From NCBI RefSeq assembly GCF_055900595.2, contig NZ_CM148325.1: a stretch of 64,000 nt of DNA. One strand, 5' to 3'. Under the pieces are notes generated by a model. That model ran no database searches and was not told the DNA's origin. It saw only the letters and a list, made by a program, of their open reading frames with translations. The translations under genes and the position numbers were made by a program. This document shows positions 30,173-32,753 of the stretch, piece after piece (position 1 is the stretch's first letter; every line of letters begins with the position of its first letter).

Positions 30173-30812
30173 CATTTTTTCCTCAGTCTGCAAACTGACG
30201 TGCCACGGCATAGTTGAAAACCGGACCATCGACGCAGACATAGACATCCCCCATGTGGCAGTGACCGCATTTCCCCACTGCACAGGCCATCCGGCGTTCA
30301 TAATCCACCCAGATTTGCTCCGGCTGCAGCCCTTTTTCCAGCAACATCTGTACGGTGAATTTAATCATCACCGGAGGACCAACCACGATCGCCTGCATGG
30401 TGCTGATATCTTCAAATGTCAGTGCTGCCAGATGGTCAGTGACCCGCCCGGTACGGTAACGTTCATCCGCCTCGCCTTCATCCAGGGTCAGAATGAGATT
30501 GTGGTGCCGGTGCCAGTTCGCCATCTCCTGTTTATACAGCACACAGTCCCGGTTTCTGTAACCGAAAACCATGTCAAGCCGGTTGATTTCCTGTGGGTTT
30601 TCGACGAAATAGCGCATTAACCCCTTGACCGGTGCAACGCCGGTACCGCCGGCAATGACCACCAGAGATTTGTGGCGGAAGGCATCGACAGGATAGCCGT
30701 TACCATAGCAGCCACGCAGCCATACCCTGTCGCCCTTGCGTATTACCGTGAAGGAGATCGGTGAGTAACGGCGTTTTTCAAGGTAGTTGTCGCCTTTTGT
30801 AATAAAATTACG

Positions 30813-31718
30813 TTATGCCGCTTCTTTTTCTGGATTCAGATAAACTGCCTGAATGAGTTCCCAGTCACGCAACTGTTTGCTCCAGCGCTCAGGATGACGT
30901 TTGCGAGCTTCGCGATAAACTTTTTTTCTGGCTTCCAGTATTTGTGCGTCAATTCCGCGATGGCGTTCATCCGGAGTAACATACTTAATACCGCTGTGCT
31001 TGTGTTCCAGGTTGTACCATCGCGTGAACTTGCTTAACCAACTTCTGGCTTCATCTATGGTTCGAAAACCATTCTCTGGCCACCATGGACAATACTTAAT
31101 CGTCCGGAAGAGCGATTCGGAATAAGGGTTATCATTGCTGACCCGGGGACGGGAATAAGAACTTAATACGCCAAGCGCGTACATTTTTGCCAGTAACGTA
31201 CAACTGCGCATTGGTCCTCCGTTATCAGAATGAAGCACGAGATTGCGGGATGAACATTTTTCATTCCATACAGCACGTTGAAGCAGTTCTGCCGCATACT
31301 GCCCAGATTCTTTCGTAAATACTTCGGCAGCAATAATTTTTCGGCTATAAATATCGACGATCATATAGAGATAAAAATGCTGCCCCTTAACCCACGATGG
31401 GATATAACTAATATCCCAGCTCCACACCTGGTTGGGGGCTACAGCTTTGAGTACTTCAGGCCGCTTATATTGGTGTTCACGGGTTCTCCTTGTCAGTTGG
31501 TTAGCTGATTTTAATACGCGATAAAAAGTTGATTCTGACGCGATATAAACCCCTCTGTCGGCAAGAGTCGGAACAATAATATTCGGAGACAATGATGCAA
31601 ACTCCGGAGAATTGCATACATCAAGTATTCTTAATCTTTCTGTTTCTGACAGTTTATTCCCCGGGGTACGCCTTGATGCACCTGGTCTCTGATCTGTATG
31701 AACCACACCACCCTGCAT
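30813..31718 (-). CDS. IS3-family transposase OrfB (DDE integrase core)
   Basis: 301 aa from first Met; motifs WSWDISYI, LHSDNGGPM, typical rve integrase core; frame extends upstream to overlap orfA. Confidence 0.85.
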   Translation of the reverse strand: MQGGVVHTDQRPGASRRTPGNKLSETERLRILDVCNSPEFASLSPNIIVPTLADRGVYIASESTFYRVLKSANQLTRRTREHQYKRPEVLKAVAPNQVWSWDISYIPSWVKGQHFYLYMIVDIYSRKIIAAEVFTKESGQYAAELLQRAVWNEKCSSRNLVLHSDNGGPMRSCTLLAKMYALGVLSSYSRPRVSNDNPYSESLFRTIKYCPWWPENGFRTIDEARSWLSKFTRWYNLEHKHSGIKYVTPDERHRGIDAQILEARKKVYREARKRHPERWSKQLRDWELIQAVYLNPEKEAA

Positions 31719-31837
31719 CCAACGTTGAAGTGTTCTGACTGAAATACCAATACACTGGCAGGCTTGTGTTTTTCTCGCTCCTGAACTGACAGCCTCGCTG
31801 ACCAGATTAATAATCTTCTGCCGCTCTGGAAGAGGAG

Positions 31838-32383
31838 TCAGCCTTCCTCGCTGTTGTCCCAGAGGGCATTGAACTTTTCCCTTAACATCAAAAGAGCAGC
31901 TGCTTCCGCCAGAGCTTTATCTTTACGGAGAAGTTCTTTTTCCAGTTCCCGTAACTGGGTCTTTGCTTCGCGTAATTCTTTATCAGCACGGCGACTTTCT
32001 GCCATTTTCATTTCATGAGCCTGAATGGATATAGCTCTCCATTCTTTAACTTGCTCAACAAATAACCCCATTCTCCGACAATAATCAGCCAGTTCCATTT
32101 CAGATAATGTTGCAGTTTCAATTACAACAGAAAATCGTCGCTCCGGTGTCCATTCATTTCCATCGACAGAAGATATTTTTTCATTTTCAGGTAACAGGCC
32201 TTGTTGCACCAGTTCAAGTCTCCATCTTGCTATTACTGAAGGGCTCAGGTCCAGTTTACGAGCAATATGCCGTATGGACCAACTATAAGGTGGTAATAAC
32301 CAGGTAACACCTTGTTCTTTTATATCAATTGGTACTGCATGTGCGGGCATAGTCTCTCTCCTGTGTAAAAATCTAGGCGACAA
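31838..32383 (-). CDS. IS3-family transposase OrfA (HTH plus leucine zipper)
   Basis: HTH IRHIARKLDLSPSVIARW and C-terminal coiled coil; true start probably the internal Met (MPAHAV). Confidence 0.8.
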   Translation of the reverse strand: MSPRFLHRRETMPAHAVPIDIKEQGVTWLLPPYSWSIRHIARKLDLSPSVIARWRLELVQQGLLPENEKISSVDGNEWTPERRFSVVIETATLSEMELADYCRRMGLFVEQVKEWRAISIQAHEMKMAESRRADKELREAKTQLRELEKELLRKDKALAEAAALLMLREKFNALWDNSEEG

Positions 32384-32753
32384 CTATGCTGACACAGGGG
32401 GTTATTCAGCGATCTGTTCAAATGTTATTACCCGATCTCGATGGAAGTTATTGAGTGATCTCCTTTCATGAAAATACGCAGCCCTCATGGAGGGTAAAAA
32501 GCGCGCCGGTCACTTTGCCGACATTGCGGATAAGCAGGTCTATCCAGCCCTCTCCGCAGTCAGAAACAGAAATGGGCGCCTCCCCGACGCATGGCAGGGA
32601 GACTTCGACAAACTGTCCCCAGCGGGCCGGAAAATCGACTTCCACACGGAAATTCCACTCCTGTGGTGTATGACGGGTGATGGAAATAATGCGGTATGCA
32701 GCAGGCAAAAGGCTGTGCTTTTCTTTATCGTGACAGGAACACGTTGACACAGG

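Follow-up and report, generated by a model that had tools for sequence, protein, structure and literature searches.

The window, a stretch of 64,000 nucleotides of Escherichia coli DNA, carries an asrABC operon for an anaerobic, NADH-dependent sulfite reductase in which asrB is interrupted by a member of the IS3 family. It is very probable that one such insertion into E. coli asrB inactivated the operon and that the interrupted form is an ancestral allele of a lineage. The element transposed once into codons 89–91 of asrB in this accessory operon, duplicating 5 bp of target (GCCCT) with no other rearrangement, and AsrB is now truncated to 94 aa: its FAD-binding barrel is incomplete, and neither the NAD-binding domain nor the C-terminal Fe-S domain is left. 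The electron-input subunit is thereby lost, and the operon should be unable to convert sulfite into H2S. The insertion is ancestral to a lineage, and the allele is nearly unchanged in sequence across hundreds of public assemblies.

Structure of the asr locus and repair of asrB

The three asr genes are co-oriented on the minus strand in the order asrA-asrB-asrC, separated by gaps of 3 nt and 10 nt once the IS is removed. Both outer genes are intact, as the first-pass annotation of this DNA had stated: asrA (32754–33797, minus strand) encodes 347 aa and scores 560 bits against the AsrA equivalog TIGR02910 (cutoff 323), and asrC (29162–30172, minus strand) encodes 336 aa and scores 502 bits against TIGR02912 (cutoff 324). 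The asrA frame is open for four more codons upstream (33809–32754, 351 aa), the annotated-type start being at 33797. The middle gene is not continuous: the 1744-bp IS breaks it at codon 90, and in its present state the asr locus is a pseudo-operon. The split had been placed after codon ~90 in the first reading, in agreement with the asrB 5' fragment (32481–32750, minus strand), which has a GTG start and 90 native codons. According to the open reading frame (32466–32750) and the reconstruction, this frame continues through four codons of the IS (CVFS) into a stop at 32466–32468, giving a product of 94 aa. The 3' fragment (30183–30736, minus strand), delimited by the list of open reading frames, the reconstruction and the Pfam matches, holds codons 91–272 and the stop; its earliest in-frame start, the GTG at 30662, opens a 159-aa frame (30662–30183) with only the NAD-binding and Fe-S part of the protein.

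The IS had been described as 1744 bp long and flanked by a direct GCCCT repeat, and both statements were borne out: it spans exactly 30737–32480, with one GCCCT at 32481–32485 by the orfA-proximal end and the other at 30732–30736 by the orfB-proximal end, as established by reading the junctions and by comparison with other loci. At the left junction ...CCCTGTC GCCCT is followed by the IS from TGCGTATTACCG..., and at the right junction the IS ends with ...TGAAAATACGCA and is followed by GCCCT CATGGAG.... A 5-bp match at a fixed junction has a chance of about 1 in 1024.

The IS was removed in silico together with 0–8 extra bases. A single open frame resulted with 2, 5 or 8 extra bases, and removal of the IS with 5 bases, that is, with one exact copy of GCCCT, restored an AsrB of native length, 272 aa. 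The repaired junction aligned without gaps to the intact annotated E. coli asrB of locus L001 (183/192 positions), and 266 of the 272 residues of the repaired protein were identical to the AsrB annotated there. The repaired AsrB scored 438 bits against the NCBIfam AsrB equivalog (cutoff 289). The insertion was a simple one, as claimed. A single detail of the earlier reconstruction was wrong: the restored protein reads ...LHEGDRVW... with one G, and not ...HEG|GDRVW..., in which the duplicated glycine had been counted twice.

Identity to the annotated genes of L001 was similarly high for the outer subunits (AsrA 336/347 and AsrC 331/336 residues, 97–98.5%). The NCBIfam profiles were covered over positions 1–333 of 334 by AsrA, 1–261 of 261 by the repaired AsrB and 1–314 of 314 by AsrC. 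The Pfam domains found were Fer4_22 in AsrA, NAD_binding_1 and DHODB_Fe-S_bind in AsrB, and NIR_SIR_ferr, NIR_SIR and Fer4 in AsrC, and all 40 cysteines of AsrABC, the ligands of the Fe-S clusters and siroheme included, are conserved between the window and an intact E. coli allele.

Spread of the interrupted allele

The insertion had been treated as a feature of one genome, and this has to be corrected: it is a real inherited lineage allele present in hundreds of public assemblies and not a private event. The 94-aa product of AsrB' and CVFS arises only with the IS at the asrB site and therefore marks the insertion allele; its exact sequence is indexed in 450 blocks of the collection of public assemblies, among which are a metagenome scaffold and two long contigs (3.1 Mb and 1.1 Mb). 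Ten asrB::IS loci differed from the window at 0–3 positions over 5.2 kb, and ten further loci, retrieved through the exact AsrC protein, all carried the insertion, so that identical junctions and an identical target duplication were seen in 20 of the 20 loci inspected. Among 5,426 complete RefSeq E. coli genomes, searched with the whole locus and with a 300-bp probe, no record spanned the asrB-IS junction. The exact pre-insertion AsrB protein gave no record in an index of 15 billion proteins, and the ancestral state of asrB was consequently reconstructed from alleles at 95–97% DNA identity.

Assemblies are classically prone to errors at IS copies, and fragments of this IS occur in many E. coli genomes (2186 of 5,426), which could suggest that a copy had been mis-joined within asrB during assembly. 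The perfect 5-bp duplication and the exact restoration of the frame speak against such an artefact, as do the identical junctions in the 20 independently assembled loci, the two large contigs and the metagenome scaffold among them; a mis-join has next to no probability and is already effectively refuted.

Secondary lesions are seen in single carrier assemblies. They comprise an IS shorter by 46 bp at the same site (L024), losses of 1 bp within the IS, and a premature stop in asrC (L012). In L012 (GCA_958303425.1) a G>T change, equivalent to window position 29866, splits asrC into open reading frames of 103 and 175 aa, which is consistent with further decay of an already dead operon.

The surroundings of the allele also vary. 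In three carriers (L008, L011 and L013) it adjoins GH32 and LacI-family genes (sucrose-type), and the flank differs from that of the window upstream of ~34850. The change of flank is seen beyond about 2 kb upstream of asrA, where the window and other assemblies have a ShlB/CdiB two-partner-secretion locus. The differing flanks of the same allele indicate that the flank was rearranged after the insertion.

Genomic context and selection on asr in E. coli

Positions 5000–29066 of the window are 99.7% identical to many E. coli chromosomes, and the window is from this species. The intact order S6-family autotransporter (S6 peptidase)-asrC-asrB-asrA was found in E. coli A2 and H22, in which the region upstream of asrA with genes for two-partner secretion and contact-dependent inhibition (CDI) also continues. 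The asr island is mosaic and lies between the S6 autotransporter and the two-partner-secretion/CDI locus. One of its boundaries is near 29066 (29013–29161): there are strains which are 99.7% identical to the window up to 29066, over the S6 autotransporter and the sequence upstream of it, and lack both asr and the CDI locus, having instead a fragment of ISKpn37, an ISEc23 element (IS66 family) and PTS genes (L016).

The operon is a rare accessory locus, found in 65 of the 5,426 complete E. coli genomes; 47 of the places where it occurs are chromosomal and 21 are on plasmids. In one plasmid example (L020, NZ_CP074368.1) it is situated ~0.9 kb from the IncFII repA. The E. coli alleles are very diverse, with dS reaching 0.36, a divergence which suggests several acquisitions. 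Pairwise dN/dS among intact alleles was 0.05–0.22, and by this measure the intact alleles are under purifying selection. The values between the window allele and intact alleles were similar (0.05–0.26), and there is hence no clear sign of long-term decay in the window allele.

These data bear on whether the operon had been cryptic or inactive before the IS arrived, in which case the insertion would have been neutral, striking a locus already silent or dead, and would have left the phenotype unchanged. Such a history is unlikely, albeit with some arguments on its side: bismuth sulfite agar is, by one description, not blackened by E. coli (PMC12452934), asr is not mentioned in a genomic study of H2S-producing E. 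coli, and 8 of the 12 window-private substitutions in asrABC are nonsynonymous. The last ratio, however, is the same in the intact H22 allele and is thus uninformative, while the purifying selection on intact alleles over a dS of up to 0.36, the full set of conserved cysteines and the scores of all three proteins far above the equivalog cutoffs argue against an operon that was already dead when it was hit.

Probable consequences for sulfite reduction

The truncated AsrB' ends within the N-terminal FAD-binding barrel and is devoid of the NAD-binding and Fe-S domains. The asrABC operon of Salmonella Typhimurium converts sulfite into H2S, a reaction which is lost in an asrA mutant on bismuth sulfite agar (PMC12452934). 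Taken together, the domain loss and this mutant phenotype indicate that asr-dependent production of H2S from sulfite has most likely been lost in carriers of the allele, as the first reading had proposed. This presupposes expression and activity of the operon in E. coli before the insertion, for which the purifying selection on the intact alleles (dN/dS 0.05–0.22) gives support.

The IS also separates asrC from the asrA promoter by 1.7 kb, and we infer a polar effect on asrC. A simple consensus scan of the minus strand over 29100–34200 found no promoter-like site that might serve as an outward promoter for asrC. Transcription of asrC by read-through or from the IS is possible, yet it would not restore AsrB. 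Function might also have been kept if the C-terminal AsrB fragment were produced from the GTG at 30662, with the help of a promoter borne by the IS or a cryptic one, or if another reductase fed electrons to AsrC. The 159-aa frame does retain the domains for NAD binding and the Fe-S cluster, and both neighbouring genes, asrA and asrC, are intact, but the fragment lacks the FAD-binding barrel, the promoter scan was negative, and one carrier assembly has since acquired the nonsense mutation in asrC; continued function is very improbable.

As to why the interrupted allele became common, we regard selection, in place of hitchhiking, as an improbable cause. It would demand that a lineage which had acquired asr gained fitness by silencing its production of H2S from sulfite, as this H2S would otherwise impair the cytochrome bd-dependent respiration of the cells in the gut; sulfide has been shown to have this effect on E. 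coli (PMC12452934).

Comparison with known sulfite and sulfide systems

The gene order and gene sizes in the window equal those of asrABC in Salmonella enterica (TIGR02910, TIGR02911, TIGR02912). In contrast to the Salmonella operon, the E. coli one is a rare accessory locus, known from sequence and here interrupted in asrB. Natural loss-of-function lesions in an enterobacterial operon for sulfide production are likewise represented by H2S-negative Salmonella variants affected in phs; the lesions in these cases are point or frameshift mutations, in contrast to the IS insertion in E. coli asrB. Among the papers searched, none joined asrB, E. coli and an insertion sequence. The kind of event is entirely familiar, an IS3-family element inactivating a known operon by insertion in textbook fashion, and the specific case is undescribed in the papers searched.

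The import of the finding beyond annotation is small. It shows that a sulfite reductase operon of the Salmonella type belongs to the rare accessory DNA of some E. coli and that the allele marks one lineage of the species as a natural asrB knockout, for which the IS is usable as a lineage marker. It has recently been argued that Salmonella uses its production of H2S against E. coli, and strains with intact asr (H22 and A2) together with the asrB::IS strains make a handy natural pair for asking whether E. coli uses the pathway.

The inserted element

The inserted element (30737–32480, minus strand) has its transposase genes oriented as the asr genes, and its limits were fixed by termini shared with three further insertion contexts. 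Its ends are of the TG...CA type, TGCGTATT...AATACGCA, and form an imperfect inverted repeat of ~33 nt with one indel. Repeat analysis placed the orfA-proximal terminal inverted repeat (IRL, ending ...AATACGCA) at 32447–32480 and the orfB-proximal one (IRR, starting TGCGTATT...) at 30737–30769. The termini were identical in all four contexts (asrB, L002, L003 and L004/L005). Two of the other, independent sites had 5-bp target duplications, GCCAG in L003 and TAAGG in L004/L005; the plasmid copy, located between traQ and trbA (L002), had none. The window copy is 100% identical to this plasmid copy except for one additional 23-bp unit.

The orfA gene (31838–32350, minus strand) encodes 170 aa from the ATG at 32350, with a weak match to HTH_Tnp_1 (PF01527), within a longer listed open reading frame (32383–31838); the exact OrfA protein is recorded on 231 contigs. 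The orfB frame (30813–31874, minus strand; listed open reading frame 31718–30813) contains the integrase core, with the domains rve (PF00665) and rve_3 (PF13683), and scores 173 bits against the IS3 family transposase model NF033516 (cutoff 160). It is in the -1 frame relative to orfA, and the 76-nt overlap of the two contains GAA_AAG. Frame analysis places a putative -1 frameshift site, A_AAG, at 31874–31877 (minus strand). Joining orfA and orfB at this site gave a fusion of 512 aa, which is also the length of the PGAP coding sequence 'IS3 family transposase, programmed frameshift' on identical copies, the two junctions agreeing within one residue. In the fusion a DDE triad was recognized at D313, D376 and E412; its residues are spaced by 63 and 36, and a K stands at E+7 (ESLFRTIK). 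Judging from the arrangement of the frames, we infer that the transposase would be expressed by -1 frameshifting. A hairpin 5 nt 3' of the slip site was not unusual in a test of its significance (z = -1.1). The score of OrfB, the triad and the two frames with a slip site all agree with the assignment to the IS3 family made in the first-pass annotation, and the element is apparently intact.

With the IS3 family the element shares orfA (HTH) and orfB (DDE/rve) in the 0 and -1 frames, imperfect TG...CA inverted repeats and a short target duplication, and the A_AAG slip motif is also that of IS3. Classical members such as IS3, IS2 and IS911 are 1.2–1.3 kb long. The present element is longer than these, with 1697–1744 bp and its 512-aa fusion transposase. 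The nearest named relatives by protein identity are ISPsy31 (52%) and ISSpu6 (49%), and the relatives of the transposase form a large clade of ~500–520 aa proteins. A name was sought in the source annotations, all of which give only 'IS3 family transposase'. It is an unnamed, apparently active member of this IS3 clade with long (~512 aa) transposases. The 5-bp target duplication is common to the element and IS2 (IS2 group of the IS3 family). Membership in the IS2 group was nevertheless rejected: in a tblastn search the transposase gave no match at E <= 1e-3 to the IS2 copy in L001, and the shared length of the duplication is therefore no sign of close relatedness.

The length of the element tracks the number of 23-bp units (GTTATTnnnnGATCT...; 32401–32469 in the window) at the orfA-proximal end. 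These were compared in L002, L003, L004 and L024: one to three diverged copies are present, each with a Dam site and each matching the inner half of the inverted repeat at the IS end, and the corresponding IS lengths are 1697/1698, 1721 or 1744 bp. In the window, comparison with other copies of the IS showed two extra subterminal units at 32401–32446, in which the inner part of IRL is repeated; one or both are missing from other copies. At the identical asrB site L024 has the 1698-bp form, 46 bp shorter, from which it follows that the number of units can change in place or is collapsed in short-read assemblies. The variable GATC units might conceivably serve the transposase as Dam-sensitive binding sites and modulate the activity of the IS.

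Fragments of the IS, notably the orfB-proximal 150 bp, were present in about 2,000 of the 5,426 complete E. coli genomes, and at least 80% of the element in only 183 of the 5,426. Many of the fragments fall under features annotated as 'hemagglutinin' in CDI loci. At 55497–55563 the window contains a 67-bp element which consists only of the two terminal inverted repeats of the IS joined back to back (TGCGTATTACCATGAAGGAGATCGATGAGTAAC-C-GTTATTGGATGATCTCCTTCCATAAAAATACGCG); no target duplication is evident around it. One copy per genome is found in 576 of the 5,426 complete E. coli genomes; a proliferating MITE was rejected on account of the single copy, and the 67-bp element looks like the scar, now fixed, of a deletion within an old IS copy. 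At 52475–53658 the window contains another IS3-family element, unrelated to the first. By eye it looks like canonical IS3, with an orfA of 112 aa and an orfB of 272 aa, and in the integrase core it shares only 27% identity with the IS in asrB.
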